Assembly (NCBI GenBank): GCA_040954595.2
Contig: CM082594.2
Span: 1,196,247 to 1,260,246, forward strand
DNA: 64,000 bases
From: Balanoglossus misakiensis
Lineage: Eukaryota; Animalia; Hemichordata
Direction of reading: 5' to 3'
This document shows positions 11,674 to 54,271 of the stretch, piece after piece. The notes under the pieces were generated by a model. It did no database searches and was not told the DNA's origin. It saw nothing but the letters and a program-made list of their open reading frames with translations. Each line of letters starts with the position of its first letter. Positions within the stretch are counted from its first letter, which is position 1. Made by a program: the position numbers and the translations under genes.

Positions 11674-11778
11674 TCTTGGGACAAAAAGAAAAAAAAGAAA
11701 ATTAACGGTTAGTGGGTCCTCGCCTGTGACGAGTCATAGCCCTACCCGATGGCATTTTCCCCTTTTCCCTGTGTTCCC

Positions 11779-13269
11779 TTAATCGTCGATCCCCTCCCCC
11801 TCGCAGTTCGGACAGTGGAAGGGATCAGTCGAGTTGACCTGCTTTTGGGTGAGATTGACGCATGTGCTGTGGAACCAGTCGTAACAGCTGTCACACTGGA
11901 CCATCAGCTTCTCTGTGTCCGGCCCACGGCAGATACAGTAGGTCTGTTCCCGGTTTTTGTCCTGCGGATCAGGATCCCCACCCTTTAGGGGCAGTGACCT
12001 CTTGAATTTAACTATCCAGCTGGGCAGTTGCGCTTCCCTACACAACCTTATTCTGTCGTGGGTCGCGGTGGCGATGCGTCTCGGAAGTTTCACTCGGTAC
12101 AAATATGGCGATAATTTCGCTATCACTATTCCTGGTCCTTTCCATGGGGGGCTCAGTTTTTTACATTTCCCTCTCACCGTCACTGAGTCCAGAAGGTAGA
12201 CGGGATCTACGACTTCATATGAACGGAGTCGGGCCTTCAAGTCGTAGTCCCGCTTCATTCTTTCCTGGGTGACCTGCAGTTTTTCCTGAGCGAGGTCATG
12301 GGCTTCTTTGATGGCGCTCCCCAGGCTGCTCACATATTCTTCATGGTCTTGGGCTGGCGTTGGTTTCCCGAAGACCAGGTCGGCCGGTTGGTTCACTTCC
12401 CGCCCCAGCATAAGGCGATTAGGTGTGAATCCAGTATTTCTGTTTACGGAGGTCCGAATGGCTCCGGCGATTTGGGGTAGGAATTTGTCCCACTCGTTCT
12501 GTTTGCATCCATGAGGGTCCGGTTTTGCCGCTCCATCTGGCTGTTCGCGGAACAGCTGACTTTCGAAATTACTGCCTCTATCTGTGAATATCTCGAATGG
12601 CCATCCGAATCGAGAAAAGAATTCCCCTACAGCTGCCTTAGCGGTTGCCTCTGCCGTTTGGGTAGGCAGTGGAATGCACTCTACCCACTTGGTGAATTGG
12701 TCGACCATGACTAGGATATATTCGTTTTTTCGGGGTGTCCGGGGCAGTGGTCCAAGGAAGTCCAGATGTACCCTTTCCATAGGTGATCCCACGTGGTATC
12801 GGGTCAGAGGGCACCTCGCATGTCGCTGTGGTTTCTTGTGCTTGTTGCAGTTGTGGCACGAGGCTACGTAGCTGCGTACATCATCTGCCATCCGATGCCA
12901 GTGGTACTTCATTTGGAGTCTGGCCAGCGTCCGTTGCACGCCCTGATGTCCCGCTGAGGGGATCGCATGGTTCAGTTCAATTACTTCCGATATCATTGTT
13001 CTGGGGATGACCAGTTTTCCTTCGCCATCATCCTCGGATTTCCTCCGGAGTACTGGCATCTTCCGGTCCACATAATATATCTCGCGGTTTATCCAGGCAT
13101 GTTTTGCGGCGGTGCTGAGTAGGTCCAATGCGCTTTCCGCAGGGGTTTGACCAGTATCCAGCCATTCCAGTATCGGCCGTAGATCGGCATCCTCCTGCTG
13201 TTGCCGGTGTATCGTTTCCGAGGTTTCTCGCCACGGCGTGTCGGTCTCTGGCGAGCTGCTCCTGGTCAC
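11779..13269 (-). pseudogene. Gypsy integrase with C-terminal PHD finger
   Basis: H2C2 (H..AGH...CHNC), HLDFLGPLP, FTDRGSNF. ERQNRTL is shifted into another frame by small deletions. C-terminus YCICRGPDTEKLMVQCDSCYDWFHSTCV...FHCPNC fits the C4HC3 PHD pattern. Confidence 0.93.
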
Positions 13270-13290
13270 CGTGCATACCTTGGGGTCCTC

Positions 13291-14121
13291 CTATTCCGCC
13301 TGTGTATCTTCACTGAAGGAGGTGTCCTCTCCCATGGAGTCTATTCCGATTGACTTTAGTATTTCGTCGAAATCGAATCCTTCTCCTGGGTCCTCTGGGG
13401 GGTCTGCGAGGTGGTCACTCGCTTCGTCTTCTTCGCTGCCTAAGTTTACCGTGCAGACGTCTTGCCTAATGTCATTGGATGGTTGTGAGGCTAACGGTAT
13501 TACTTCGTCTACCCCGGTGACGAAGTCTCCCCAATTTCTGTGCGCTCGTTGGCAATAGTCACATCCGCCGCAGGGAAGTTCGTCCGGCGTAACGCTGTGG
13601 CGGTAGTGTCCCTGCGGTTCAATTCTGGATAGGGCATCCGCGTTGAGGTGTTTGTTCCCCGGCCTATGCTGAACCGTCATGTTGTACTGGCTAAGTTCTT
13701 CCAACCACCGGGCCAATTGTCCTTGGGGCGCTTTAAACCTCAGCAGCCAGGCCAGACTGCTGTGGTCCGTCCGTGTTATGAAATGGTTCCCCAGCAAGTA
13801 GTGTCGGAATAACCGGGTAAATCGTACTACTGCTAGGAGTTCTTTTCGGGTCGTGCAGTACCTTGTTTGTTCGGGTGTTAATGCGAAGCTGGCGTATGCG
13901 CTCACTCGTTCTTCTCCATCCTGCACCTGGAGAAGTTCCGCTCCCACGGCAATGTCCGATGCGTCCGTGTCCAATGTGAACAGGTCTTTTGGGTTCGGTA
14001 ACGTGAGTACCGGCGCCGATGTTAAGCAATCTTTTAGCGCCTCGAAGGCCAGCCGTTGCTCTCCGCCCCGCTTGAAAGGCTTTTTCCCGTAACTGCGTAC
14101 AGCGGGCGGCCAACTTGGCAT
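13291..14121 (-). pseudogene. Gypsy RNase H and tether
   Basis: LDTDASDIAVGAEL, YCTTRKELLAVV, TDHSSLAWL, GQLARW, NADALSR; CGGCDYC motif. Confidence 0.93.
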
Positions 14122-14152
14122 GATCCTTTATAAACGAGCGGTGTTAATTGGC

Positions 14153-15025
14153 TTACCCTGCGAAAAGTTCCACCTCCTTGGTGTTTTTTGGTGTCGGCCA
14201 GTTGCGTACCACGTCAACGGAACGCGGGTCCTGTCCTATGGTTCCTTTGCGGACAATCCGCCCCAGGAACTCCACCTCTGTCTGAAACAGTTCACACTTG
14301 CGGGGGCGTAGTTTCAACCTGTATTCCCGGATCCGGGTGAACACGTCTCGCAGATTCTGGAGATGGTTTGCAAAGTCCGCCCCAAGTACCATGATGTCGT
14401 CTAAAAATGCTAGTACTACCTCCCATGTCAGCCCACGCAGCACCAGATTCATGGCTCGCGAGTATGTGGCAGTGGTGTTGCACAGGGCGAAGGGCATACG
14501 GGCGAATTCATACAGCCCGTACTTTGTGGTAAAGGCAGTCTTCTTGCGGCCCTCTTTGTCCACTTGTATTTGCCAGTACGCTGAATTGGCATCTAGTTTC
14601 GAGAACCACTCGTTCCCGGCCAGCGTGTCCATGCAGTCCTCTATCAGCGGCAAGGGGAATACGTCTTTTCCGATCACATTGTTCAGCGACTGATAGTCGA
14701 CGCACCAGCGGACTGTCCCGTCCCTCTTCCTTACCAATACTGGTGCCGAAGCCCATTCTGATGTTGAAGGTTGGATTACCCCTGACCGCAGCATTTTCTT
14801 GAGGTGGGTCTCCTCCTCCCCCGCGAAGCGTAGTGGGGTTCGGCGCATCCTCTGCTTCACTGGTCGCGCGTCCCCTGTATCGATACTGTGCGCAAGGGCT
14901 GTGAAGTTCCCCAGGTCATATTCATTTGCAGCAAAGACATCCTGGAACTCGATTAGTAGCTCTTTCATTTCATGGGACTGTTTCTCCGTCAGATTGGCTG
15001 CTGATTTTTCTGACAATTCCCTCAA
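14153..15025 (-). pseudogene. Gypsy reverse transcriptase
   Basis: SEWASAPVLVRKRDGTVRWCVDY, PLPLI, FSKLDANSAYWQI, KTAF, MPFALCN, FLDDIMV. Confidence 0.95.
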
Positions 15026-15722: not shown

Positions 15723-16917
15723 ATGGTGTCAGGCCTGGCCAAGTCCGTCCAACAGTTGACTGAAAATCAGAAGAAATGGTTAGGTCCTGCCAGAGATGGT
15801 CGCCGTACCAGTGAAATGGACCTGGAAGCGAACGCAGCGGATGGCATTCCCCTTGCTTGCATTGGGGTAGCAGGTCCTTCGGGTGCACACGAGGTGCTTC
15901 CTCCATTGAGTGACTGTACCTGTCGCCAAGGCCCAGTTTCTGTGGCCCCTGAGTCTCTTCGAGACGTTCGTGCACAGGATAAACACGCTGGTCGTGTTAA
16001 TTTCCTACTGGATGTGGATTCAGACGACTCTTCGGATGTCGAGTCACCACCTCATCGCCGTTCATCGTTTCGGAAAGAGAAATCCAGAAGAAAGAAAGGT
16101 AAGAAGAAAGACAATAAGTCTAAGGCGTCACCAGTTTCATCAGGCAATTCTTCTTCTACTGGAAGTTCAGATTGTGAGTTTGATAACCCACATGACAGAA
16201 ATACTGGTGTGGAGTTTTCCAAGTCGGTCCGGTCTTGGTTTATACAGCAACGTACAAATGCTCTGAGTGCAGATGACAAAAAGGAAATGAAGGAACGTTA
16301 TGAAGTGTCTTCAAAACATGAGAAATTATTCTTATCTCCTGCTCTGCCTGAAAATCTGGCTACTCATTGGGAGAAGCAACCAGTTACTAAACCTATGATG
16401 CAGCAGGACCATAGAATTCGGAAAGCTGCTGATAATTTATTGTTGTCGCAACTTCCGTTGTTGGAAATTTTGCAGACGGCTCATGATGGTGTCAATTGAT
16501 CCACAAATTCTTCTAACTACCATTCAACTTAGTATTACTCTGTTCGGTAGTGCTTTTCGTGGTCTACAGATAGCAAGACAGAAGGCCTTTGAATCTGTGC
16601 TTCCAAATATGTATGCTTCTTTGAAGAAATTGGAACCATCCATGGCTACATTATTTGGAGATGAGCCACTGAAGGAGGCAAAGAAGGCAAAGCAGGCCCA
16701 TAATGTTGTGGTTGATATGACCTCTAGGGGTCAAGGGTCAACTGGAAGTGCAGCAGGCCAGTTCCGCAAACGCCCCATGTCTACCTACAAGTCCAGGTAT
16801 GGCCAAAGTGGATATGGTAAGCGGTCTCAATACTCCAAGTTTATACAGTATGGTTCTTCACCCAAGTTTGCGAGAACTGATGGCGCTGGTCAGTCCTTTC
16901 GTGGCAAAAAACAGTGA
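15723..16917 (+). pseudogene. DIRS gag-like ORF (frameshift near 16495)
   Basis: Two overlapping ORFs (15723-16499, 16483-16917) upstream of RT; K/S-rich region, TLFG motif. Confidence 0.7.
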
Positions 16918-16991
16918 TGTTTTCCCTCATCAAGAGCAGTTACTTACTCATCCCCAGGTAGGGGGTCGTCTAGCTTTATTTCTTCACCAGA

Positions 16992-18962
16992 GTGGCGGCA
17001 GCTAACTTCAGACCCATGGATACTAGAAACAGTGCAAGGTTACAAGCTGGAACTCGTGTCAACACCAGTGCAGTCGCATCTACCAGTTACGGCTGTTCAG
17101 TCATGCCATGTAGATTTGATCGACACAGAAATACAGTCTTTGTTACAAAAGGCGGCAATACATCCAGTGGTACCAGTTCAAGGTCAGTTTGTGTCAACAA
17201 TATTTCTAGTACCCAAAGTGTCAGGAGGTTGGCGCCCGGTTTTCAACCTGAAATCACTCAATCGGCACATTGCTTATCAGCACTTCAAGATGGAGGGCCT
17301 TCAGCATGTCAAGGCGCAACTTCGTCCAGGCGACTTCATGGCCACAGTAGACCTGAAGGATGCATATTTCACTATCCCAATTTTTGTAGATCACAGAAAG
17401 TTTCTTCGGTTTATTTGGAAGGAGACGATGTTCGAATTTGCAGTTCTGCCGTTCGGCATTGCCAGTGCTCCTCGAGTTTTTACGAAAATGTTGAAGCCAG
17501 TCGTCGCTCAGTTTCGTCGCCAAGGTATTTGATGTGTAATTTATATAGACAACCTCCTGATCCTGGGGGAATCCAGGAAGTTTGGCCAAGCGAATGTAGA
17601 GACAGCTGTGCAACTTCTGCAGAGTGTAGGTTTCCTCGTAAATTGGGAAAAATCCAAACTTCAACCAAAACAGCAAGTTCAGTTTTTGGGTATGATGATC
17701 AACTCCATAGACATGACGATCAGTTTCCCACAGGAAAAGGTACAGAAACTCCAATCAGAATGTTGCTGGGAAAAGAAGTGGTCACTGTGCGTTGCCTAGC
17801 AAAGGTGTTGGGGCGAATGACAGCAGCTCTGGAGGCGAAAACTGTGGCGCCACTTCATTACCGGGCTCTTCAGAAAGATCAGCTGAAGGTGTTCGCTCTG
17901 ACAGGGTGCTTCGATTCCCCATTGAGTCTCTCTCGAGCAGCAAAGACAGAGTTGAGATGGTGGGTAGAATGTCTTCATGCGTGGAATGGCAAGTCCCTAC
18001 TACCACATACACCGCAACTGATAGTTCAGACAGATTCGTCCATCAGAGGATGGGGAGCAGTATGCGGGCACAACTCGGCACAGGGACAGTGGAACCAGAG
18101 TCTCCACATAAATCAGCTGGAGATGCTGGCAGTTTGCAGAGGATTGGAGCGTCCGGCAAGTCATCTGCAGGACATCTGTGTCGAAGTCCAGTGAGACAAT
18201 ACATCAGTAGTGTCTTACATCAACCGTCAGGGAGGCACTCGGTCTTGGCCTCTGAGCGAGTTGGCGGCCAGTCTATGGTTGTGGTGCCTGAAGCGCAACA
18301 TTATACTATCAGCAGTGCATCTGCCGGGGAGAATCAATTAAGAGGCGGATTACCTTTCGCGAAAATTCAACGACAATCTGGAATGGCAGCTCAACCCAGT
18401 TGTGCTCCAGAAAGCCCTCCGGATGTTACAGTGGATACCGCAAGTGGACCTGTTTGCGACACATCTGAATGCACAGCTTCCTCGTTACGTCTCTTGGAAA
18501 CCAGATCCACAAGAGTGGCGAATAGACGCATTTTCCATTCAGTGGAACAAGCTGGTAGGCTATGTGTTTCCTCCGTTTTGTCTTCTTCCAAGAATTCTGC
18601 ACAAAGTTCATCAGGACAAGGCACGCATAGTTCTGGTGGCCCCAGTGTGGACGACTCAACCCTGGTATCCGGATTTGCTTTCACTTCTGATACAAAATCC
18701 GTTATTGCTCCCACAAGTCCCAGACCTGTTAGTCGATCTGTTGACAGGGCAGAATCATCCACTCGCAAACCAAATGTTGCTAGCCGTGTGGCCGCTCTCA
18801 GGTGTACTCTCCGAGCAAGAGGCATATCTGAAAGGGTGTCTAAAATTATCCTCCAAAGCATCAGACGAGGCACTGCAAAACAGTATGAGTCAGCCTGGCG
18901 TCGCTGGAATCGTTGGTGTCAAAGACAAAAGGAAGATCCTATTTCAGCGCCTATCCCTATAG
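16992..18962 (+). pseudogene. DIRS RT, RNase H and adenine methyltransferase-like domain
   Basis: FLVPKVSGGWRPVFNLKSLN, DLKDAYF, LPFGIASAPRVFTK; TGA at 17530, then YIDN in place of YxDD; TDSSIRGWG, HINQLEMLAV; VDLFAT...DAFS..W...YVFPPF...APVWTTQPWY. Confidence 0.92.
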
Positions 18963-19740
18963 TGTTGGAATTTCTTGCAGACCAACTTGATAGACAACTT
19001 CAGTATCACACCATTAATGTATATCGTTCAGCTATCTCTTCAGTGCACTTGCCAGTTGATGGATATCGTTTGGGAAATCATCCACTTGTTACACAGTTTA
19101 TGAGGGGAGTTTATGTATCCAGACCACCCAGGTATGGGATGTTCAGCAAGTTTTGACTTTTCTTCAGTCTTGGTCGCCATCCAAGGATTTGTCGCTGAAG
19201 TGTTTAACATTAAAAACTGTTATGTTAGTTGCGTTATGTACAGCAGGACGGTGTTCTGATTTGGCAAATCTCCAGTTGGAGTCTATTTCGTTATCCAAGG
19301 GATCAGCTGTTTTGCTTCCGGCTAGTTTGTCGAAGACAGACAGACCAGCCAAGAAAAGAATAATTGTTGTTTTAACAGCCTTCAAGAAGGATCGAAGGTT
19401 ATGTGTAGTCTATTATTTGGCTTCTTATTTGCGTCGGGTGCAGTCTTTACGCAAGCACAAGAAGACCCTTTTCGTTAGTTTTGCGTCAGGAAAACCTGTT
19501 TTGCCAAGTACCATAGCAAGATGGATTAAATTGGTGCTTCAGAAGAGTGGTATAGACAAGGTCTTCTCAGCACATGCAACTAGAGCAGCAGTTACTTCAG
19601 CCCTTCATTTCAGAGGAGCCTCGTTACAGCAAATTATGGGTTTGGCGAATTGGTCCTCTTCTAGAACCTTTGCTAAACATTACCAGTGTGAGGTATCATC
19701 ATTGACTTCTCCAGTGTTGGACACCTTGGTAACCAAATAG
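18780..19740 (+). pseudogene. DIRS tyrosine recombinase (frameshift near 19130-19155)
   Basis: RRGTAKQYESAWRRW, TINVYRSAIS, HPLV; catalytic motifs GRCSDL, HATRAA, ANWSSSRTFAKHY. Confidence 0.92.
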
Positions 19741-23822: not shown

Positions 23823-24996
23823 TCTTTCTTTCTTTATTCTTGTGTCAATTCTTTGACCCACGAGATCTCAGACACCGCTGCAGGTACACTTCTGAAACTT
23901 GCTACAGTGGTCAAGGTCAATGAGTAGTCGTGCATTGAACCCTTGAATTTTTAATTAGTCTCGTGACCTGGCGGCCATCCTGGATTTTCTGAAAAAATGC
24001 AAATCTCAGATCTCAGAAACTACAAGTTAGATCGACTTCAAATTTGGCATGTTGGTAGACTACCTACTGCCCATCATTTTTGTAATTGAAAATTATGCTG
24101 AAAAAGTTGCAGTTTTTTGCTACAATTTTTTTTCTGAAATCTGGCTTAAATTTCAAAAATCTTCTTCTCCAGAACCGGTGATAACCGAGACACAGGGTTT
24201 GGTGTATGTGGTCACCTAACTGATGTCTATCAAGTTTGCGAAGATCATTGTGATTGGTCGAAGATTTTGGCGGCCATATTGGATTTTCGAAACACCCTAG
24301 TAAAATTTCAAAAATCTTCTTCTCAAGAACCGGCGATTACCGAGTCACAAGATTTGGTGTGTGTGGTCATTAAACAGATGTCTATCAAGTTTGCTAAGAA
24401 GAATGTGATTGGTCGAAGATTATGGCGGCCATATTGGATTTTGTGAAAAACGATTAAAAAGTAAAAACTCCCTTTCTAGCCTAAAAATTGTTAGCACAGA
24501 AATTCTTTTTATGGATATGAATCATCATATGACAAGAATAAGCTATAAATATTTTGGTAATTTTGGCAATGACCTTTGACCTACCTTTGACGCATCATTT
24601 TTCTGCATATCTGCACTGAAAATCGTCGCACCTGCAACGACCCATTGACTGAGCCGTTGATTTTATTTGTCGACGCACCCGACTGTTATCAGGCTGACTG
24701 AATGGGCATGTAACAGAATTTGCAACATTGTTGTGTTGAAGCAGACGCGGAGTCTCGGATTACATTACAGAGTGAATATACGACCGAGACACTTGATGAA
24801 ATCAAAAGTTCAAACTTTGTAATGAATAAAGAACACGGTAAAAGTTGTGCGTGTTTTTCCCCCGATTATTTTAAATGAAAGACAGATATTCATCATGCAT
24901 GATTCACTAAGAAACATTTATTCCACTAAAACACACCAAGCGATCGAAAGATAAAATACACAGTCCGTTTGATCAAAACTCGACACGGGTGAAAAC

Positions 24997-26079
24997 TCAA
25001 AGTTGCGGTACTTGTATATAACCAGTTGCAGCATAATACTCGTGCGTATCGTTTGGGGTGATCATTCGCACTGCATCGTACACCGCCACGGCTACATTGT
25101 CATGTAATAGTTCGCGGTAATAGTCTCTTTTCAGGAGACTTTTCAACTTACTAAAGCAATTCTCGACAGGATTAAAATCTGGCGAGTACGTTGGTAAAAA
25201 TACCATTTCAACTCCGATATCATCCAACATATTTCTTACATGATCACCTGGTTGATGGTGATGTATAGGAGCGTTGTCTACAACAACAGTGTCTCCTGGA
25301 TTCAAAACAGCCTCACCGTCATTTGTGTACGCCGCCATGGCTTCAGCAAAGTACCTAATGAATTCATCGCCATTGGAGGGTCCCTCAATAACAGAACAAT
25401 ATTTAACACCATCAATTCCAACGAGCAGATTCACTGTGTTATTTGCACCTGTCAAATATCTGCCGATTTCATAGGTTTTCACTCCCCTCTGAGAATGACC
25501 ATATGTACGTTGACCGGTCTGTATTTTGACCCCGCTTTCATCCATAAACTTGACTCTCGCCGGATTCTTCGTCATCAAGTAGTCCACATAGGCTTGCGTG
25601 TACTCCATATTTTCTTCGGTCAAACGATGTTGATTGATGACAGACATTCTGGTAAATGTCCACGGACCGCCAGTTAGTTCATTACGAACAGCTCTACCCA
25701 CGGTACTGACGCTGACTGAGTTAACCGTGCCGTATTGCATCAGTTGGTCCACTATTTCCTGGTACGTAATGGAAGGTCTTTCCCTTTTCAACATCTCGAT
25801 AAATTCCAGATCAGGATCGGTGAGCTTGCTCTGCTGGGTTGATCCACGAGGAGTGGGTGGATCGATTTCACCGGTTTCACAGTAGTGTTTCCAAAAACGA
25901 CTCACTGTTGATTTGTTCACTCTGAACCTGTCCGCTACTTTTTTCAAACAACCAGCTGGAAAATACCCGGTCCTCTGATTTGCTCTGAGTGTCACCATTT
26001 CATTTCTGATCAATGAACGCAAGTCACTTGAGAGTGGTTTTCCGCGAGAAAACGAGCGTCCGCTCCGACTCACTTCCAT
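24997..26079 (-). CDS. Intact DD37E transposase with paired-like DNA-binding domain (360 aa from the ATG at 26079)
   Basis: GKPLSSDLR...VADRFRVNKSTVSRFWKHYCETG; FMDESG, VVDNAPIH, LPTYSPDFNPVE, with 37 residues between the second D and the E. Confidence 0.95.
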   Translation of the reverse strand: MEVSRSGRSFSRGKPLSSDLRSLIRNEMVTLRANQRTGYFPAGCLKKVADRFRVNKSTVSRFWKHYCETGEIDPPTPRGSTQQSKLTDPDLEFIEMLKRERPSITYQEIVDQLMQYGTVNSVSVSTVGRAVRNELTGGPWTFTRMSVINQHRLTEENMEYTQAYVDYLMTKNPARVKFMDESGVKIQTGQRTYGHSQRGVKTYEIGRYLTGANNTVNLLVGIDGVKYCSVIEGPSNGDEFIRYFAEAMAAYTNDGEAVLNPGDTVVVDNAPIHHHQPGDHVRNMLDDIGVEMVFLPTYSPDFNPVENCFSKLKSLLKRDYYRELLHDNVAVAVYDAVRMITPNDTHEYYAATGYIQVPQL

Positions 26080-26417
26080 ATTTCTTACAATATTTATCAA
26101 ATATAAGGTTGTGGACAAGGCGGGAATGTTCCCTATTAGTTAGGAACATACCAAATTACATGTTGATGACTTTGCTCAAACTTCCATTAAAATAACCATA
26201 CTGAGTACATTGGTAATTAAGATGACATTAAATTGTATATTTGGAATATTTTTGACAGGTAACGTTTTACAAATTTGTTTGCGATGTGGAAAAGTTTTGT
26301 TCTCGTTCTGAGTTCATACACGACCCCCCCTCCCCCCTAATTTGTTGGTCCTTCCACCCGACAGTTTCACTGCGTTCGACACGTGCGTGTGTGGAAGACA
26401 TCAGTAAATAGCTGTCT

Positions 26418-28037
26418 ATGATAAACATGGAATCAAAGTCTCCAAGTAACATGTCAACGGTCGAGAGATTTCTGGTTTCCATAAGCCCAACTCTTCTGAA
26501 GTATCGATCCGACTTTGAAGAGCAGGACTTCATTTCAACGACTTCGCTGAAGTTTTTCACGGAAGATGACTTTTCGAAGTTCAAGAATCGGGTCAGCGAA
26601 ACTCACAAACGGATGATTATGTACGGGATTGACAACCTGCCGACCCCACGGTTGAATGATCGCCGGGAACAGAAAGGGAGCCCTGACAGTGCAGGACCAA
26701 GTCGTGGAAGAATTCCTAAAAGACTTTTCCGATCTCCACGGGATCGGGAAAGGCGGCCAAGTAGACATCGTGAATCATCGGCCCGGGGGCGTAAAGAGAG
26801 TATGCCCACTGCCCAATATGCAACGGTGGAATCGGAAACTGCCGCTCCTGCCGCGGTTGATGACAATGGTGCCGGTGGTGATGATGATGAATGGGGAAAC
26901 TATACTTGGCAATCCCCGAGCGAGCTCATGATGGAAGCGTTAGAAAGTGAAATTTCAGAAATAGAAATGGAACTTGATGAGGCTTCCAAGAAATACAACG
27001 ATCTCAACAATCGCTACCGACAAACGGAGCAACTCCGAGAAGCGGGCCAAAAGAAATGCACAAACTGTCACGTCTATGGCTCACATGACAAGCGAAAGTG
27101 TCCGTTTCCAACTTGTGTTACCGTTGAACAGTGCGGTTCATTGCCTGACCATCCCGTGGAAAGAAAAGAACTTACATCAGCAAATGAGGTTGTCTCTAAG
27201 CTGAAAAGTGACTTAAGGAAAAAGAAATCAACGCTTGAGTTAAAGAAAGCAGTTCACGAGGCTACCTCAACAACGTTTTACTCGCGCGTGTACAGTACCT
27301 TACTTAATTCTAACAAGCGGAAATATTTGATTCGAACAGCGTCTGGAGTCGTGCCACATACCGCTATCATCAAAGGAGACTGTGCCATTCTTGAGAAACA
27401 CTACAAGGGCAAAATTCCGCAAAACATTGAACGCGCGGGAAAAACATTTCAAACTATTATCGACAATTTCAATAGTAAACACAACCGTGCCGATAAATAT
27501 CGCCCTGGTTCTCGACTGCCAGACCCCATTCAAGAGGTGTTAAAGCGACGAAAGATGCAAATGTCGCCTAGGCGAGCTCCCGAGCTGAATGAGGCACCGA
27601 CAAACCCTGAACTTCGCGCAGAAACTCCGTCCCAAAGTCAAGGAAATCGCGGCCGTACCTGTTCGCCTCCCAAAGAAGGCCCTAGCAACGCTCAAGCGGC
27701 TGGCTTACATGAACTGTCAACAAATTGTTCACCGTGTGTGTCAAATTCAGGCCCAGTTGTAATTCCGACTACGTCTCATTCGTACAGTCCGTATGTGCCG
27801 TATACGTATGGTTACCCCTATCAGTTTTATCCTTGGAATTGGGGCGCTGACACACCGCCGACTTCACATTTCAGTCTGATGTTTACACCATTCGGCTACG
27901 GCCCTCATGCATACGAAGGGAATATAGCAACTACAACCTATCCAACATCGACCATTGATATTGCTGCAGTGCAACCAGCATTTCCAATCGAGCCACGCGT
28001 TGATAACCCCCCTCAGCCTTCTGAAGCAGATGAGTAA
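26418..28037 (+). CDS. Intact 539-aa transposon ORF2 (SAM-like N-terminus, coiled coil with Cys/His knuckle, P/Y-rich tail)
   Basis: Uninterrupted, intronless ORF inside the TIRs. VERFLVSISPTLLKYRSDFEEQDF...HKRMIMYGIDNL; CTNCH...H....C....C.....C.....H. Confidence 0.85.
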   Translation: MINMESKSPSNMSTVERFLVSISPTLLKYRSDFEEQDFISTTSLKFFTEDDFSKFKNRVSETHKRMIMYGIDNLPTPRLNDRREQKGSPDSAGPSRGRIPKRLFRSPRDRERRPSRHRESSARGRKESMPTAQYATVESETAAPAAVDDNGAGGDDDEWGNYTWQSPSELMMEALESEISEIEMELDEASKKYNDLNNRYRQTEQLREAGQKKCTNCHVYGSHDKRKCPFPTCVTVEQCGSLPDHPVERKELTSANEVVSKLKSDLRKKKSTLELKKAVHEATSTTFYSRVYSTLLNSNKRKYLIRTASGVVPHTAIIKGDCAILEKHYKGKIPQNIERAGKTFQTIIDNFNSKHNRADKYRPGSRLPDPIQEVLKRRKMQMSPRRAPELNEAPTNPELRAETPSQSQGNRGRTCSPPKEGPSNAQAAGLHELSTNCSPCVSNSGPVVIPTTSHSYSPYVPYTYGYPYQFYPWNWGADTPPTSHFSLMFTPFGYGPHAYEGNIATTTYPTSTIDIAAVQPAFPIEPRVDNPPQPSEADE

Positions 28038-28749
28038 CTTTGAACACTAAACGTCATATAAACTTTGTGCAGTGAAAAAACTGTTGAACTTTCTCCTTGA
28101 AATTGTTTCATTAAGACTTCGTTGCCTGGTTCTTATTTTAATAGAAGTAGACTGTTGTTTTGATCATTGCCCCCCTGTTAAGGACGCAATATACATGTAA
28201 ATTTATATTACATGCAAGTGTTATGATGAAAAAAAACGAGGTCAAGTTGAATACGGAAACATTTTGAACTGTCTGACAGACCTCTAGTCGTGTCCTTTGT
28301 ATTTTATCTTTCGATCGCTTGGTGTGTTTCAGTGGAATAAATGTTTCCTAGTGAATCATGCATGATGAATATCTGTCTTTCATTTAAAATAATGGGGGGG
28401 GGGGGGAAACACGCACAACTTTTACCGTGTTCTTTATTCATTACAAAGTTTGAACTTTTGATTTCATCAAGTGTCTCGGTCGTATATTCACTCTGTAATG
28501 TAATCCGAGACTCCGCGTCTGCTTCAACACAACAATGTTGCAAATTCTGTTACAAGCCCATTCAGTCAGCCTGATAACAGTCGGGTGCGTCGATAAATAA
28601 AATCAACGGCTCAGTCAATGGGTCGTTGCAGGTGCGACGATTTTCAGTGTAATTCCAGGCTAACCAATAGGGCTATAAGTTTGGTGTTTGATGTATGTGG
28701 ATTTGTATGTGATCAAAAAATTTTGCTACTTTTCATGACCTCTGCTGAC

Positions 28750-29640
28750 CTCATTAAATATGCACATATCTAATTACAGATGAACCAATAGACCTAGAGG
28801 TTTTGTTTTTGTTATACATGGACCAGTATGGGGACAAAATATTTTGCCCAAATGTTGGGTGACCTCGGGTGACCTTTGACCTACTTTTGCATATCTCGAC
28901 ATCCACAGCAGATACAGCCTTGGCGTTTGGAGGTACATGTATGGGGCCATACGGAAAAGACAAAGTTTTGAGTGACCTGTGACACCTGCTTGACTCATTA
29001 TTTATGTGCATACCTAATTCTGGGCTAACCAAAAGGGCTAGAGGTTTTGTTTTTGTTATACATGGACCAGTATGGGGTCAAAATATTTTGCCCAAATGTT
29101 GGGTGACCTCGGGTGACCTTTGACCTACTTTTGCATAACTTGACATCCACCGCAGATACAGCCTTGGCGTTTGGAGGTATGGGGCCATAATGAAAAGCCA
29201 AAGTTTTGGCTCACCTGTGACACCTGCTTAACTCATTATTTATGTGCATACCTAATTCTGGGCTAACCAAAAGGGCTGGAGGTCTGGTTTTTGTTGGACA
29301 TGGACCACTATGGGTCAACATTTTCTGCCCAAATTTTGGGTGACCTCAGATGACCTTTGACCTATTTTTGCATATCTCGACATCCACAGCAGATACAGCC
29401 TTGGCGTTTGGAGGTATGGGGCCATAATGAAAAGCCAAAGTTTTGGGTCACCTATGACACCTGCTTAACTCATTATTTATGTGCATACCTAATTCCGGGC
29501 TAACCAAAAGGGCTAGAGGTCTGGTTTTTGTTGGACATGCACCACTATGGGTCAAAATTTTCTGCCCAAAATTTGGGTGACCTCAGATGACCTTTGACCT
29601 ACTTAACACAATATCAGCACCAAACATAGATATAACCTTG
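28750..29640 (+). repeat. ~238-bp tandem core repeat, ~3.7 copies
   Basis: CTCATTATTTATGTGCATACCTAATTC recurs at ~28994, ~29232 and ~29469; GACCTTTGACCTA motifs. Confidence 0.9.
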
Positions 29641-29743
29641 ATATGTCATGGGATAAAACACAGCATTATGTTTCTACTCATTAATTATGTGCAGATCAGA
29701 TAATAGAGCTTGGGCCCGGACAATGCTGCTTGCAGCTTTAATT

Positions 29744-30934
29744 CTTCTTCTTCGTCTTCTTCTTCTTCTTCCGAGAAAATCGGCCAGGTAGATCTGGAAA
29801 ACCGCTGCACCTAGGGGGCTAAACTTGGTAGGGTGATAGGGGCCAATGAGTAGACGTGCAGTGGCTCGTGAATATTTATTTAGTCACGTGACCTGGCGGC
29901 CATATTGCATTTCCTGAAAATCGTTAAACGAGTCCTTCTCAAATTTGGTGTGCAGGTAGCCTACCTTCTGTCCATCATTTTACCCCATTGAAATCATGAC
30001 GTCACACAAAGTTTTTTTGCTACAATTGTTTTTCTGAAAAACTACTTAAAACTTTAAAAATCTTCTTCTCCAGAACCAGCGATTGCCGAGTCACGGGATT
30101 TGGGGTATGTGGTCACCTAACCTATGTTTATCAAGTTTGCGAAGCGCACTGTGATTGGTCGATCATTATGGCGGCCATGTTGGATTTTCGGAAAACCATT
30201 GAAAAATGAAAATTCTGTTTTGTAGCCAAAATGTTGACAGCACGTAAATTCTTTTTTTGGATATGAGTCATCATATGACCGGAAGTTGTTACAATTTTTC
30301 GGGGCAATTTTGACATGACCTTTGACCCAGTTTTAAAACAACTAATTATATATGCATATTCCCCATACCTCCTCTTGTAAAAGCACCACAGTCATGAATT
30401 TTGTGGACATGGGTACCAATGCTGCCAGGACATGACACAACTATTTTGGTAATTTTGGCAATGACCCTTGACCTATTTCTGAAACATCATTTTTCTGCAT
30501 ATCTAATTCCAGGCTAACCAATAGGGCTAGAGGTCTGGTTTTAGTTGGACATGGCCCACTCTGGGGTCAAAATTTTATGCCCAAATTTTGGGTGACCTTG
30601 GATGACCTTTGATCTAATTTCCCATATCTCAGCATCCACAGCAGTTAGAGTCCTGGCTTTTGGAGGGCCGATGGAGCAGATATGGAGTCTTACACAAGAC
30701 CTCATTAATTATGCGCATACCTAATTCTAGGCGAACCAATAGAGCTAGGTGTTTGGTTTTTGTTGGACCTAGACTAGTATGGGGTCCGATTTTTTTGCCC
30801 AAATTTGGGGTGACCTCAGGTGACCTTTGACCTACTTTCCAATATCTTGGTATCCGCAGCAGATACAGCCTTGGCATTTGCTTGTTACCATGGGAACCGC
30901 TTGTGCCCCGCCAACGCTGCTTGCAGCTTTAATT
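29744..30934 (+). mobile_element. Second related HINE-like unit in tandem
   Basis: (CTT)n start, body homologous to 23900-24610, same GCTGCTTGCAGCTTTAATT terminus. Confidence 0.6.
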
Positions 30935-35747: not shown

Positions 35748-36367
35748 CCGTAGTTTGCCGGGTAAGAACCCCTGCTCGGACAAACGCCCCCCCCCCCCTG
35801 GTTTTAGGGCCCATTTGTAGATCGAGGCCATATCCGGTCTAAAGCCCCCCCCCCCCCAGCCGAATATCCATTAAATTCTTGGAAATTTAATAAAGTGCAA
35901 TGCAAAAAAGGCGGATTTTCATCCCCAAAGTCACTAAAAGTGAAAAAAAAAATGTATGATGATTTACTTTCGCGCTGATTATCGTACCCACCGCGGCCGA
36001 CTGGCCACGCTGAGTTATATATAGCCGCTCTAGAAAACATGACCTCAGACAGGTCCCTCGGGACCGTGCCTCGAATTCAACGATCACGTAGATGGACGCG
36101 CTGCCGCGTGTGAGGTCACCGGTACCGGGGAGCTTTCCAAAGCGGCCGCGTGGAGCTGCTTCAGTCCGTCCTCGACGCGAAACACCCAACATTGGAAGAT
36201 CCCGACTTGGACTCGGAGAATGAACCACTCAAAAATTTGCATAAAAGTCGAGGTGGCCATCCCTCATTTGCATAAATCTCGAGGCCATATCCGGGCTAAA
36301 GCCCCCCCCCTGTTTTTTCGCTAATCTGTTGGCCCAGCACCCGGGGCTCTTACCCGGCAAACTACGG
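35748..36367. mobile_element. 620-bp Tc2/pogo-like MITE, arm 1 only
   Basis: TA|CCGTAGTTTGCCGGGTAAGA ... TCTTACCCGGCAAACTACGG|TA. Empty site TGGCA-TA-TGTAAG in arm 2 at ~39563-39575. Confidence 0.93.
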
Positions 36368-37309: not shown

Positions 37310-37569
37310 GTATGTATAACAGAAGGCAATATCTCCTCCTCGTCCACAGCCATAGCCTAGTATCTAGCTGTATTTTGTCCGCTTTGCTTCCAAAACTAGC
37401 GTCTAGCCTCACTCATGCCACTGGCCCGATAAAACCCCATACCCCTTGCCGGGAATTGTGACGTATATATCAAATTATTGTGGTGTGATTCAATATGGAA
37501 AGAATGACAATTGGAATGTTCATCTCTTTGGTTGAAAAAATAATTTTTCAACAATGATGTCTATTGCAG

Positions 37570-37731
37570 AGAGGTGCGATGTTGGTCACTACTTTGACAA
37601 CGGGACTTCTCAGTGCCAAAGCTGCCCCATTGGATTCTGGCAATCAGAAGAAGGAAAGTTTGTGTGTAATACTTGCCCAAAGGGAATGCTTACATTAGTT
37701 GAAGGAGCTACTGATGAGTCACAATGTCAGG
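37570..37731 (+). CDS. Exon: Ephrin_rec_like repeat (in spacer)
   Basis: CDVGHYF...CQSCPIGFWQSEEGKFVCNTCP...GATDESQC. Confidence 0.9.
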
Positions 37732-37975
37732 GTAGGTACTTGTGTTATTTGCTATTCTTGACTATCAATCACATGATCTGGCCATGTGACGTACCCATGG
37801 CGTTATCATTTGTAAGTGACAGGCAAGCAATATTTCGGCATCCAGTAAACTTTTTTCCGAGTAGGTTTTTACTTTAGAACCGCCAGATATGCAACATATT
37901 CAACAGTTTAACAAATTCACGTGAGTGAAAAGCAGATTATCGTGAATATCAAAAAATTAATCTTCTCAATTACAG

Positions 37976-38365: not shown

Positions 38366-38628
38366 ACGCCATACAGCATTACAATCAACAAATAGTAAAA
38401 AAAAATAAAAAAGTAAACAAAAAACAGGAAAACATTTTAAAAATACAAATAAAATTATGAAACTACTAAAAATACGTCACAATTCCCGGCAAGGGGTATG
38501 GGGTTTTATCGGGCCAGTGGCATGAGTGAGGCTAGACGCTAGTTTTGGAAGCAAAGCGGACAAAATACGGCTAGATACTAGGCTATGGCTGTGGACGAGG
38601 AGGAGATATTGCCTTCTGTTATACATAC

Positions 38629-41600
38629 CAAAACACTGCAAGATGGATAATGATCTCTTTCCCCTGGTGACTCCATTATTTGGACAGGCATTGCATGCTG
38701 TTTGTCCTTCAAGGGGTTGATAATATCCAATTGCACAAGGATGGCACTGACTCAGCTCAGTGTCATGGTACGACCCTTCAGGACACAATACTGTGGAAAT
38801 ACAAAATGTTGAAGGCAGATGTATACATTGTTCATGTACTGATCATTATGCATTAATGGTTTAAAACACAACTACAATTGTAACACACAGCATTCATTTT
38901 GGCCAGTTTTTCACTCTTGTGTCTACAAGTGGGATGGCAGTTGTGTGTGGTTGAATGTTGATTCACTATATATCCACATGTAGAATAACATTAACTGTGT
39001 CTTCTATCAAACATAATTAATGGAAAAAGGGCAGCGAGAAAGAGACTTTGTCCCTCCTTGGTATGAGCATATCAAATCAATTATTTCCTTATATCACCTC
39101 TTGGTTGGGTTGTATTTACCACTCACACTTGTCTTTGATTTGTACACTGCGACTCACAACCACACTCGCAGCAATACGGCCCACCTAACAGGTCATATCA
39201 GGCGATATAAACATATTAACATCTACACCTTTTTATAATATTAATTTTGGACACAGTTTTAATCCTTTCACCACCATGGTTCAGTCCAAACCAATTGTTT
39301 TCTATGGTAAGGTTTTACCTCTATAGAGGAAACTGGGAGTGAAAGGGTTAAAGTACATAACAACTGAGGAGTATAGGCACTCACCACATTCTTCTCCAAC
39401 AAGAACACTACCATTGGAACAGAATATTGTACTTTCAACTTGTAATGTCTCAGCGTCGACCGAATATTCAGCTGTATCAAAAGTACCATTCTAGACTGCA
39501 TCTTCAATAACTACAGCTGCAGCATCAGCAGAGCTAATGGATAAAACAACAGGCAAACAATTCTTACATATGCCACATTACAATACCAACCAGAAGTGTG
39601 TACTGTAAACTGGGTTGTTTTCACGACAGGAAATTTTCGCGATATTAAAAGAGGCGACTGTTACGTGAGGACGAATTTCAATAGAACAGAAGGGGAATAA
39701 AATACTCGAAAAATAACAATTACTACTCACGCATTGGTTGTGAAACTGAACTGAACCACAAGCTGAGTATCAGCCTGTCTCTTTCTTCGGTTTGAGGCGC
39801 CGCAGGTTATTTCAAGGTCATCAAAGTTGCATTCACCGCCACAAATACCAAACAAATCATTCAGATAGTTGATAGTGTTCATAAAACTGATCCTCAATTG
39901 CTGGATGACACCATTGTTACATGTACCAGCCTGTGAATTGTATGACACGCCACAATTCACTCCACGTTGAGTCTTCCCAGGAGCTGCAGTAGAACAATAC
40001 AAACAAACAAATTTTGTTAAAGATGCAATTTTCAATCTAGTGAACGATGTATTGACTTAGACTGGGAAACCGCTTAGCCAATCAGGAAAGTTACAGCTGC
40101 TTACCCAGAACAAAATATTAAGAAAATAGCTCAAATGTACTGGAGCTTTATATTGGGGTAAGCAGATATGATGTTAACAAATTATCTACCTGTAATCACA
40201 ACCTTGACATACTGTAAAGCAAGAATTTGCATTACTCATATTTCTCTTTTCATTTATAACTAAAAGAAAATTGTCTCAATGCTGGAATACCCCCTCTCAC
40301 AACTCTCTCTCTTTGGAGAATTTTCTGAATGTGCATGTGCAACCTGATTATATTTCTTTACTGATACCAAATCATTTTTTTCTCACCTGAACATCCAGAG
40401 AAGGTGAATTCCTCGTCTGGATTCTCAGGATTAAAAGATCCTTCACTATGGCAGAGATAGTAAGGTGCTGGCAGGCTTGCAAACTTGTATCCTGGTAAAC
40501 AATCCACCTGACAGAACACACCCGACTCAAACTCATTACAGATGGAAATACCTTTAACTGGTGGTGCTGGCTTTTCACAATCAAATGCTGTAAAAGAAAG
40601 GAGAACACAGTTTATTTGTCTATATATATATTTTTAATTTTATTTCATCTATCATCCAACAGGCAAATGCTACCCAAATGTCTGTGTCTCATATATCATC
40701 CAACAGGCAAATACTACCCAAATGTCCTGGTCTAGGTAACGAACCCACAACCCTAGCCACTAGGGCACAATGCCTCTTTTACCAGGTTCACACAGGGTAA
40801 AATTTGAGACACTATTTGCCAGTGCTAACCACAGAGCATTAATCCTTTGAGTCATGTTGTGTCCACACACACAAAGTTTATGTATGGGCGCTGAGGCTCG
40901 GCCCCATAGACAATGGGTTGCGGAGAGGTGTTAATCCTTACACCGGCTCAGGTCTGGCTGGCAGAGCCGTCTCAAATCTGAGACGTTTCAGGACCACTTA
41001 CACCGTCCACACATGTTTTTTAAGACAGTATCAATTCTGAGATGCTTCAGAACTGTCTTAATGGTGTATGTGTGACACCCATATTTATTACACAGTCAAA
41101 TCTTTTAAACAGAACACCAACGCATTAACATGTTTCTATGTAAAAGGGACTAGGAAAAGCTGTTGGTTGAAGAGAGGTTTCCCGATTAGACAGGGTTTGT
41201 TTTAGACGGGTTTGAGTGTCCTTGTATGTTTTGAATGATGTTGTTATAATTTTTGATAGTTACATAGGGACAAAAGTGATAATGATGCAATCATATTACT
41301 GTAAAACGGCAAATTTTCCCAAACTTCGGCAAAAAAGAAGAAGAAAATAAAGTCGCATAAAATGTTTTTCAGAGATAACAGAGTAGTTAGTAAAATACTA
41401 GAATGCGGAAATTTAATTCTCGTGTCACAGTTGCCTCTTTTGATATATTGCAAAATATTTTCTGTCACGAAAATGTCCTGTTTTACAGTATGTGACAAGA
41501 CATAACAAGGGGTAGAGATGACAATTTGTCAAGATATTAATTAATTTTTAAAGTTTATGTATGAATGATAAAAAAATTCACTCACGCAGTACATAGAGTA

Positions 41601-44143: not shown

Positions 44144-47100
44144 CTGCCAAGAAATTCAAAACAGAGATTAGACATAAATCGGTGCATCAGCTGGTACTTT
44201 TGGGAAATTATCACACTTTTTTCAAACTGCACCACCTTTAGCCCATACAGAAGTATGCACTGAACTATGTACAAGTATTATGAACCCTAAGTATGAGTGC
44301 ATATGCAAGTTTAAACCAGACAAATAATAAATCTTCGCCGCAAAGGAATATGGTCGCCACCGTGAGAAAATGCAAAATACAATTAAAGCTGCAAGCAGCG
44401 TTGGCGGGGCACAAGCGGTTCCCATGGTAACAAGCAAATGCCAAGGCTGTATCTGCTGTGGATACCAAGATATTGGAAAGTAGGTCAAAGGTCACCTGAG
44501 GTCACCCCAAATTTGGGCAAAAAAATCGGACCCCATACTAGTCTAGGTCCAACAAAAACCAAACACCTAGCTCTATTGGTTCGCCTAGAATTAGGTATGC
44601 GCATAATTAATGAGGTCTTGTGTAAGACTCCATATCTGCTCCATCGGCCCTCCAAAAGCCAGGACTCTAACTGCTGTGGATGCTGAGATATGGGAAATTA
44701 GATCAAAGGTCATCCAAGGTCACCCAAAATTTGGGCATAAAATTTTGACCCCAGAGTGGGCCATGTCCAACTAAAACCAGACCTCTAGCCCTATTGGTTA
44801 GCCTGGAATTAGATATGCAGAAAAATGATGTTTCAGAAATAGGTCAAGGGTCATTGCCAAAATTACCAAAATAGTTGTGTCATGTCCTGGCAGCATTGGT
44901 ACCCATGTCCACAAAATTCATGACTGTGGTGCTTTTACAAGAGGAGGTATGGGGAATATGCATATATAATTAGTTGTTTTAAAACTGGGTCAAAGGTCAT
45001 GTCAAAATTGCCACGAAAAATTGTAACAACTTCCGGTCATATGATGACTCATATCCAAAAAAAGAATTTACGTGCTGTCAACATTTTGGCTACAAAACAG
45101 AATTTTCATTTTTCAATGGTTTTCCGAAAATCCAACATGGCCGCCATAATGATCGACCAATCACAGTGCGCTTCGCAAACTTGATAAACATAGGTTAGGT
45201 GACCACATACCCCGAATCCCGTGACTCGGCAATCGCTGGTTCTGGAGAAGAAGATTTTTAAAGTTTTAAGTAGTTTTTCAGAAAAACAATTGTAGCAAAA
45301 AAACTTTGTGTGACGTCATGATTTCAATGGGGTAAAATGATGGACATAATGCTGTGTTTTATCCCATGACATATCAAGGTTATATCTATGTTTGGTGCTG
45401 ATATTGTGTTAAGTAGGTCAAAGGTCATCTGAGGTCACCCAAATTTTGGGCAGAAAATTTTGACCCATAGTGGTGCATGTCCAACAAAAACCAGACCTCT
45501 AGCCCTTTTGGTTAGCCCGGAATTAGGTATGCACATAAATAATGAGTTAAGCAGGTGTCATAGGTGACCCAAAACTTTGGCTTTTCATTATGGCCCCATA
45601 CCTCCAAACGCCAAGGCTGTATCTGCTGTGGATGTCGAGATATGCAAAAATAGGTCAAAGGTCATCTGAGGTCACCCAAAATTTGGGCAGAAAATTTTGA
45701 CCCATAGTGGTCCATGTCCAACAAAAACCAGACCTCTAGCCCTTTTGGTTAGCCCAGAATTAGGTATGCACATAAATAATGAGTTAAGCAGGTGTCACAG
45801 GTGAGCCAAAACTTTGGCTTTTCATTATGGCCCCATACCTCCAAACGCCAAGGCTGTATCTGCGGTGGATGTCAAGTTATGCAAAAGTAGGTCAAAGGTC
45901 ACCCGAGGTCACCCAACATTTGGGCAAAATATTTTGACCCCATACTGGTCCATGTATAACAAAAACAAAACCTCTAGCCCTTTTGGTTAGCCCAGAATTA
46001 GGTATGCACATAAATAATTAGTCAAGCAGGTGTCACAGGTCACTCAAAACTTTGTCTTTTCCGTATGGCCCCATACATGTACCTCCAAACGCCAAGGCTG
46101 TATCTGCTGTGGATGTCGAGATATGCAAAAGTAGGTCAAAGGTCACCCGAGGTCACCCAACATTTGGGCAAAATATTTTGACCCCATACTGGTCCATGTA
46201 TAACAAAAACAAAACCTCTAGGTCTATTGGTTCATCTGTAATTAGATATGTGCATATTTAATAAGGTCAGCAGAGGTCATGAAAAGTAGCAAAATTTTTT
46301 GATCACATACAAATCCACATACATCAAACACCAAACTTATAGCCCTATTGGTTAGCCTGGAATTAGATATGCAGAAAAATGATGCGTCAAAGGTAGGTCA
46401 AAGGTCATTGCCAAAATTACCAAAATATTTATAGCTTATTCTTGTCATATGATGATTCATATCCATAAAAAGAATTTCTGTGCTAACAATTTTTAGGCTA
46501 GAAAGGGAGTTTTTACTTTTTAATCGTTTTTCACAAAATCCAATATGGCCGCCATAATCTTCGACCAATCACATTCTTCTTAGCAAACTTGATAGACATC
46601 TGTTTAATGACCACACACACCAAATCTTGTGACTCGGTTATCGCCGGTTCTTGAGAAGAAGATTTTTGAAATTTTACTAGGGTTTTTCAAAAATCCAATA
46701 TGGCCGCCAAAATCTTCGACCAATCACAATGATCTTCGCAAACTTGATAGACATTAGTTAGGTGACCACATACACCAAACCCTGTGTCTCGGTTATCACC
46801 GGTTCTGGAGAAGAAGATTTTTGAAATTTAAGCCAGATTTCAGAAAACAAATTGTAGCAAAAAACTGCAACTTTGTCAGCATAATTTTCAATTACAAAAA
46901 TGATGGGCAGTAGGTAGTCTACCAACATGCCAAATTTGAAGTCGATCTAACTTGTAGTTTCTGAGATCTGAGATTTGCATTTTTTCAGAAAATCCAGGAT
47001 GGCCGCCAGGTCACGTGACTAATTAAAAATTCAAGGGTTCAATGCACGACTACTCATTGACCTTGACCACTGTAGCAAGTTTCAGAAGTGTACCTGCAGC

Positions 47101-50100: not shown

Positions 50101-50654
50101 AACATCACACAGCCACTTGTGGAGTGAAAAAGCTTGTTGTCAAAGTACACCTAGCAGGAAGAGACTCGTCCATGAGAGGATTCAAAATTGAACCAGTGAA
50201 CCTGAAGTTAGAGAGCACTGCCTTTCGAGAAAATATATATGTTGGCCCAATAGGAGACACCATGCTGCTGGGAGTAGACCAACTTCGATCCAAACAGGTC
50301 ATCCTCCACATGCGAGAAAACTTCCTCCAGGTGGGAGAACAGCATGTCCCGTTGCTGCAAGGGGACCAGACCACTGTGGCACGTGGCTTACATATCAGTC
50401 GCTCCATGCACTATCCTGTCTCCGAACTCCGTGACCAGGGTGACAGGGACAATCGACATGGACATGCCCGACTACATAGTGGAACCAGTGAAACTAGGTG
50501 ACGTCATTATGCCCCGGACATTCTGTAAAAAGGGGCAGCCCCCAATCATCTGTTTAGTAAACCTGACCGATGACAACGTCACCATACCGCCGGGAACAGT
50601 AGTGGCAACAGCAGTCAGAGGAAAGCTTCTTCTGACATTAACCAAAGACATTGA

Positions 50655-53600: not shown

Positions 53601-54271
53601 CTCCTGACACTTTGGGTACTAGAAATATTGTTGACACAAACTGACCTTGAACTGGTACCACTGGATGTATTGCCGCCTTTTGTAACAAAGACTGTATTTC
53701 TGTGTCGATCAAATCTACATGGCATGACTGAACAGCCGTAACTGGTAGATGCGACTGCACTGGTGTTGACACGAGTTCCAGCTTGTAACCTTGCACTGTT
53801 TCTAGTATCCATGGGTCTGAAGTTAGCTGCCGCCACTCTGGTGAAGAAATAAAGCTAGACGACCCCCTACCTGGGGATGAGTAAGTAACTGCTCTTGATG
53901 AGGGAAAACATCACTGTTTTTTGCCACGAAAGGACTGACCAGCGCCATCAGTTCTCGCAAACTTGGGTGAAAAACCATACTGTATAAACTTGGAGTATTG
54001 AGACCGCTTACCATATCCACTTTGACCATACCTGGACTTGTAGGTAGACATGGGGCGTTTGCGGAACTGGCCTGCTGCACTTCCAGTTGACCCTTGACCC
54101 CTAGAGGTCATATCAACCACAACGTTATGGGCCTGCTTTGCCTTCTTTGCCTCCTTCAGTGGCTCATCTCCAAATAATGTAGCCATGGATGGTTCCAATT
54201 TCTTCAAAGAAGCATACATATTTGGAAGCACAGATTCAAAGGCCTTCTGTCTTGCTATCTGTAGACCACGA
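50655..54271 (-). mobile_element. 5'-truncated duplicate of the DIRS element
   Basis: Mirror of 16557-20173; broken within gag at the outer junction. Confidence 0.93.

Follow-up and report, generated by a model that had tools for sequence, protein, structure and literature searches.

A two-gene DD37E transposon in the hemichordate Balanoglossus misakiensis with a predicted polymer-forming, zinc-binding and possibly cyclin-CDK-gated accessory protein

DD37E transposons of the so-called L31 group were reportedly described in 2024 from bivalves and hexacorals (Puzakov and Puzakova as well as Puzakova et al. are said to be the authors), with nearly all full-length elements carrying a second open reading frame (ORF2) of unknown function. 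In the tree of supplement 4 of PMC7325037, the L31 hosts are Pinctada, Crassostrea, Mytilus, Modiolus, Acropora, and Exaiptasia, and the passages on L31 in PMC7325037 and in 10.1101/656579 mention the group without describing its ORF2. Here we analyze a 64,000-nucleotide stretch of the genome of Balanoglossus misakiensis (the window; contig CM082594.2, positions 1,196,247 to 1,260,246), in which positions 24614-28649 are a two-gene DD37E unit between terminal inverted repeats (TIRs), in a hemichordate as opposed to the listed L31 hosts. Our preferred reading, to which we give a probability of roughly 0.4, is that this is an intact cut-and-paste transposon whose ORF2 would encode a polymer-forming, zinc-binding helper gated by cyclin and cyclin-dependent kinase (CDK) that times transposition to the S/G2 phases of the cell cycle.

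The transposase gene (24997..26079, minus strand) encodes an intact protein of 360 amino acids with a paired-box-like N-terminus and the residues D180, D268, and E306. Between the latter two lie 37 residues, and this DD37E spacing is kept in 17/17 aligned rows. Together with matches to the Pfam families DDE_3 (E 1e-21) and PAX (E 1e-8), these residues bear out the paired-domain DD37E transposase that had been proposed from the sequence (hereafter the original prediction), and the NCBIfam IS630 score is 128 bits against a cut-off of 100. The nearest named transposase, from Ptychodera flava, is 87% identical across 56% of the query. ORF2 (26418..28037, plus strand, 539 amino acids) is likewise intact and lies head-to-head with the transposase gene, with 338 bp between the two starts (26080..26417; predicted as ~340) that may act as a shared promoter. 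With a DDE/D transposase that has an N-terminal helix-turn-helix/paired domain, with TIRs, and with a TA target duplication, the element has the features of the IS630/Tc1/mariner (ITm) superfamily. Within it, L31 membership is likely, judging by the DD37E spacing, the second ORF inside the TIRs, and the overlap of L31 hosts with those of the homologs found here (Pinctada, Saccostrea, Mytilus, Mercenaria, and Oculina). The spacing itself is not L31-specific, as the mosquito, TRT, and L18 groups share it.

The left TIR (24614..24963, plus strand) is 350 bp long and the right one (28295..28649, minus strand) 355 bp, in agreement with the ~350 bp of the original prediction. They align over 355 columns with 96.3% identity, and the ~5 differences that had been predicted proved too few: we count 8 substitutions, and a poly-C run adds a 5-nt gap. 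Each TIR carries two outward-facing AATAAA signals, i.e., at 24667 and 24922 on the minus strand downstream of the transposase gene and at 28336 and 28596 on the plus strand downstream of ORF2, so that the TIRs could supply the poly(A) signals of both divergent genes. Many contigs have only an inner portion of the TIR (24686-24830) in common with the element and exit into other sequence at 24686, 24701, 24704, or 24732, which points to related elements or miniature inverted-repeat transposable elements (MITEs).

The element sits in one arm of an inverted duplication that may be real or may be an assembly fold of two haplotypes. The exact empty TA site that had been predicted for the inverted sister arm (arm 2) is indeed there, uninterrupted and with a single TA (46364..46365); at the filled site, however, only the right copy reads TA (28650..28651), the left one being TG (24612..24613), i.e., a one-base departure. 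Both the terminus and the TA target are confirmed by contigs from two other samples that exit the element at exactly 24614 into differing flanks, with the listed consensus ending in TA (two contigs in run X1, three in X2, and one in X3/X4). In addition, the flanking high-copy repeat is seen in its empty form in many contigs. Given the empty site in arm 2 and these element exits and empty repeat forms, both genes were inserted as one unit, as the original prediction held, and probably recently. If the arms are two haplotypes folded by the assembly, we are looking at an insertion polymorphism, which leaves this conclusion unchanged.

A full HMMER search with ORF2 returned 229 clusters (50% identity, E<=0.001), while word-based searches found nothing with ORF2 itself and only 4 matches with an alignment as query. 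Our homolog analyses cover the best 150 of these 229 clusters, and 144 of the 150 carry the ORF2 core described below. Organism names were obtained for 5 of 30 clusters looked up and are Pinctada, Saccostrea, Mytilus, and Mercenaria. In Mercenaria, five gene models lie on five different large contigs and the three pairs tested are 92-99% identical; a Pinctada pair is 99.7% identical, and the Mytilus copies 93-99%. Such near-identical, dispersed copies are expected of mobile genes. ORF2 alignments are too divergent for a locus search, and genomic context was found from the transposase side. A metagenome scan by transposase, covering 3 of 64 parts, gave two close loci among 80 (L009 and L010), scans of viral and prokaryotic sequences gave distant IS630-like loci only, and one of the 167 loci scanned, L009, holds the ORF2 core.

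On this independent contig, an intact 366-amino-acid DD37E transposase with 40% identity to that of the window lies head-to-head with an ORF2 composed of a SAM exon, an in-phase GT-AG intron, and the core (E 9e-49). Because L009 holds the same pair at such transposase divergence, ORF2 is best regarded as cargo of the element and not as a chance capture. That ORF2 is a passenger or a gene captured from the host and plays no part in transposition is very improbable to us: the case for this is that genomic context comes from only two ORF2 family members, one of them with an intron, and that deletion forms of the element exist; against it stand the same orientation beside transposases 40% identical, the near-identical dispersed copies, and the eight cysteines and histidines kept in 86-88 of 88 cores despite 28% median identity. 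The original prediction had taken homologs that are mainly intron-containing host genes as a sign against an accessory role; an intron is no sound sign of this, because the intron-bearing ORF2 of L009 adjoins an intact transposase. Its broader claim that ORF2 is a maintained accessory gene is supported by the L009 pair, the dispersed copies, and near-invariant residues over 88 cores.

To describe the protein, we modeled amino acids 1-380 and the core separately with AlphaFold2 using alignments (mean pLDDT, i.e., predicted local distance difference test, of 82.8 and 93.5, respectively). ORF2 begins with a head domain (amino acids 14-72; 26457..26633, plus strand) that is confidently modeled (pLDDT 94-98 over amino acids 11-70) and that Foldseek matches best to SAM domains throughout, e.g., those of Eph and tankyrase (probability 0.98-1.0, E 0.6-0.9). 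It superposes on these with a root-mean-square deviation of 1.4-1.9 Å over ~60 residues, and the fold thus confirms what had been called SAM-like from sequence. After a low-confidence linker (pLDDT ~50) follows the core, which starts with a helical hairpin (amino acids 167-204 and 246-283; 26916..27266, plus strand) bearing at its tip a Cys/His cluster (C214, C217, H218, H223, C228, C233, C239, and H245; 27057-27152, plus strand). Model and conservation thus support the coiled coil of the original prediction and a Cys/His cluster in place of its Zn knuckle. The eight Cys/His are retained in 86-88 of 88 cores, so that the cluster would have room for two zinc ions. Basic residues are conserved in it as well, with K/R at position 220 in 70% and at position 225 in 88%. 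The first four Cys/His are spaced much like a CCHC knuckle lengthened by one residue (C-x2-C-x5-H-x4-C compared to the retroviral C-x2-C-x4-H-x4-C), with four more conserved Cys/His interleaved; Pfam zf-CCHC matches neither the window ORF2 nor the homologs scanned.

Behind the hairpin, the core has a small, conserved domain of helices and a beta-hairpin (amino acids 287-355; 27276..27482, plus strand), in which Y303 is kept in 88, P334 in 86, L295 in 80, and D321 in 78 of the 88 cores. At position 27358 (second position of ORF2 codon 314), the window has A and contigs of X1/X2 have G, giving His here and Arg there. A P/S/T-rich, unconserved, and likely disordered tail follows (27555..28034, plus strand). 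In L009, the tail consists of tandem ‘YSARSPVFSDP’-like repeats (1650-2110), and that of homolog P0036 of decapeptide repeats. Several homologs (P0018, P0020, P0022, P0024, P0025, P0035, and P0038) have a PPKKR-type basic C-terminal cluster resembling a nuclear localization signal; K[KR]x[KR] occurs in the final 30 amino acids of 15/107 homologs, and the ORF2 of the window carries KRRK at 376.

Fold searches of the PDB and BFVD with the core gave nothing at E<=0.001, a sequence search of the PDB gave a best E of 0.066, and a search of the ESM Atlas no usable match. The VIA-align rows (best Z 10.8) cover almost only the helical hairpin, so that zinc cluster and C-terminal domain are barely compared. 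The core therefore appears to be without a close database match, and these fold searches do not establish a new fold. A rod-shaped, zinc-tipped core of this kind could belong to a direct transpososome cofactor or targeting factor that would aid end pairing or target choice by binding either the transposase or the long TIRs. Precedents are accessory proteins of other transposons, among them the Harbinger Myb-like protein and the TnpA of CACTA, and both the length of the TIRs and the retention of the divergent gene pair at 40% transposase identity would fit. One branch of L31 reportedly lacks ORF2, though, L010 shows none in the 2.4 kb upstream, and Tc1/mariner transposases usually act alone according to the part of 10.1101/656579 that treats them. 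We thus consider this role unlikely; a complex prediction for transposase and ORF2 core scored 0.11, well below the mark of 0.34, and has no weight either way.

The head domain of ORF2 is not the same throughout the family. Among the 144 core-bearing proteins, 27 have a SAM head and 27 a PB1 head (half of all detected heads each) with none carrying both, while the remainder are mostly fragments or have heads missed by the profiles used. Both assignments are anchored by Pfam, with SAM_1 found in homolog P0137 and PB1 in P0027 (E 1e-5 each). Full-length PB1 heads show an acidic OPCA-like motif together with a basic motif in 18/21 cases, counted by a loose pattern without shuffle control. On a tree built from the core only, where the analysis of head states was confined to 50 rows and set aside 38 in which no head was detected, seven changes between SAM and PB1 are needed, and a single SAM clade is rejected by the approximately unbiased test (p-AU 0.0006, under a simpler model and with weak deep branches). 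By this reconstruction, the head is a module that was swapped more than once on one conserved core. The domains named as head-to-tail polymerizers in the relevant section of PMC7614096 are SAM, DIX/PB1, and VEL. That the repeated exchange is between exactly SAM and PB1, i.e., unrelated folds, suggests that self-assembly is the property under selection in ORF2 heads.

The linker between head and core holds the second recurrent feature. Across the 56 proteins with SAM- or PB1-type heads, to which the counts of this motif refer, 41 linkers contain [RK]xL(x)[FY], compared to a mean of 1.8 in shuffled linkers (maximum 8 in 1000 shuffles) and 1.6 in a tail-window control. The motif is found with either head (19/27 SAM-type and 22/29 PB1-type) and, when the proteins are clustered by core at 45% identity, in 21 of the 26 clusters; the linkers have 16-107 amino acids and a median pairwise identity of 21%. 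In the window, it reads K101-R-L-F104 after a proline (26718..26729, plus strand). This matches the RxL cyclin-docking pattern and is likely a cyclin-docking motif. A serine or threonine followed by proline (S/T-P) closes the head domain in 25/26 SAM-type and 27/29 PB1-type proteins, with T76-P77 (26643..26648, plus strand) as the candidate CDK site in the window. Where both are present (38 proteins, motif C-terminal), 17-41 residues lie between them (median 25). Docking motifs act C-terminal to the phosphosite at such distances. The distance between docking motif and site is known to matter (PMC4230602, in the part dealing with it), and G1/S substrates often carry [RK]xL(x)Phi, a motif that cyclins of the A, E, and B types bind, as stated in the relevant passage of 10.64898/2026.06.29.735189. 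A PP1-binding RVxF reading of the linker was rejected (1/56, no enrichment), and the S/T-P at the core start (68/87), which probably caps a helix, does not enter our evidence for CDK.

The same motif enrichment would also be seen if ORF2 interfered with the cell cycle of the host, forming a polymer that soaks up cyclin or serves as a CDK decoy and thereby keeps germ cells in a phase or repair state favorable to the element. Viral proteins such as papillomavirus E4 sequester cyclin-CDK via RxL motifs, and polymerization would add avidity for cyclin. However, a conserved S/T-P at a substrate-like distance suits a substrate more than an inhibitor, and the highly conserved zinc core requires a ligand of its own, which makes a sink improbable in our view.

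The original prediction had instead named anti-silencing as a possible role and did not include coupling to the cell cycle, to which the motif evidence points. As an anti-silencing or transcription-activating factor, ORF2 would multimerize on element DNA or nascent RNA and lift or block host silencing, with RxL merely tuning its level or location. The predicted multimerizing head, the zinc cluster with conserved basic residues, and the low-complexity tail would all fit, and VANC of plants is described, in the portion of PMC13547354 concerned, as a transposon-encoded anti-silencing factor with a predicted coiled-coil multimer. The ratio of observed to expected CpG is also higher inside the element than in the flanks (1.0-1.07 vs 0.4-0.8), which simple youth of the insertion would explain equally well. 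Yet the role has no direct support, as nothing connects ORF2 to methylation, piRNA, or histone machinery and its strongest conserved short motif points to cyclins. We therefore regard anti-silencing as rather unlikely.

Under the reading that we prefer, a cyclin-CDK-gated helper, transcription of both genes would run outward from the spacer to the poly(A) signals of the TIRs. The ORF2 head would polymerize head-to-tail, and the core would thereby bind with avidity to a chromatin partner or to nucleic acid of the element. Cyclin A/E-CDK would dock on the RxL motif and phosphorylate the S/T-P beside the head, switching the assembly. Excision would then occur once a sister chromatid can repair the gap, so that a cut-and-paste element gains copies. 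We propose S/G2 as the time because sister-chromatid repair regenerates the donor copy (PMC2874221, in the section concerned). Such RxL gating could also sit atop anti-silencing, transpososome-cofactor, or cyclin-sink roles, these three alternatives not being mutually exclusive. The wider proposal that L31-type elements as a group would encode such a sensor of the cell cycle, i.e., a zinc-tipped rod that polymerizes via an interchangeable SAM/PB1 head, is switched by cyclin-CDK, and lets the element cut while the donor copy can be restored from a sister chromatid, is tentative and on balance doubtful.

Several observations weigh against this reading. A form of the element without positions 26611-28270, i.e., without most of ORF2, persists in runs X1 and X2, which means that ORF2 is dispensable in cis. 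Direct linkage of ORF2 and transposase comes from two loci, the window included; L009 has no convincing TIRs that we could find, and in L010 the transposase is broken, with no ORF2 within 2.4 kb upstream of it. Regarding the head, many SAM domains do not polymerize, and the core tree was built by a quick method that leaves 27 of its 85 inner branches open. Regarding the linker, the motif is absent from 15/56 proteins, and L009 has the motif (KKLEF) and lacks the S/T-P at the end of its SAM domain. Most S/T-P sites, including TPRL in the window, are without the K/R at +3 of an optimal CDK site, and the S/T-P may simply end the folded head domain. Finally, Glu occupies the second position in 13/41 motifs, and 9/41 can also be read as RxxL, so that another partner is possible, e.g., the anaphase-promoting complex/cyclosome (APC/C).

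The landing site of the element is a very high-copy repeat of 237-244-bp units (24113-24612 and 28650-30886) whose contig depth exceeds that of the element interior about a thousandfold, with depths being per-contig values that we do not take as copy numbers. The arms of the inverted duplication (16557-37466 and 38472-54271) are ~15.8 kb long and 97.7-99.8% identical around a 1-kb center with Cys-rich, exon-like ORFs (37554-37877). Two further stretches are found in arm 1 only (35748-36367, MITE-like with inverted ends, and 29672-29965). Duplicated with the arms are overlapping ORFs resembling a DIRS-type tyrosine-recombinase retrotransposon (15723-19740, plus strand, and 51088-54271, minus strand). 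In addition, a fragmented pol resembling that of long terminal repeat retrotransposons (reverse transcriptase, RNase H, and integrase) with a PHD-like Cys/His finger at its end lies at 10573-14968 (minus strand). Both of these labels come from translations.

With two unrelated polymerization folds swapped on one core and a motif kept in a freely varying linker, the function of ORF2 becomes testable by point mutations. If our reading is true, an animal DNA transposon would read the cell-cycle clock of its host via its own accessory protein and so turn cut-and-paste transposition into a gain of copies. The locus would further provide a zinc domain for which no close relative of solved structure is known, and with both genes intact and the insertion young, it would lend itself to assays of a two-gene system.

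How does the element compare to known systems? As a type, it has probably been described already, namely as L31, while the anatomy of ORF2 appears to be new here, judged against the abstracts on L31. In our literature search, whose scope lay outside most subscription journals, we found no description of an L31 ORF2, of a transposon-encoded RxL protein, or of a transposon-encoded SAM/PB1/DIX polymerizer. Multi-ORF elements of the ITm superfamily are known from ciliates (Tec, TBE, and those of Paramecium), where extra ORFs stand beside the DDE transposase, some on the opposite strand as in our element. Tec is sister to L31 in the tree material of PMC7325037, and the Paramecium elements, as far as PMC5405496 covers them, all have an ORF2 of unknown function. 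Tec and TBE differ from our element by their DD34E transposases, and ciliate elements by having three or four ORFs with tyrosine-recombinase or zinc-finger cargo. VANC of the Mutator-like VANDAL elements is, like ORF2, encoded by the second gene of a DNA transposon and predicted to form a coiled-coil multimer; it differs in belonging to the plant Mutator superfamily with a MAIN-like fold. We know of no SAM/PB1 head or RxL motif in VANC. Likenesses in design also lie among the SAM/PB1/DIX polymerizers and RxL-carrying CDK substrates, which share the head folds and the [RK]xL(x)Phi motif with ORF2 and are, in contrast to it, proteins of the host.

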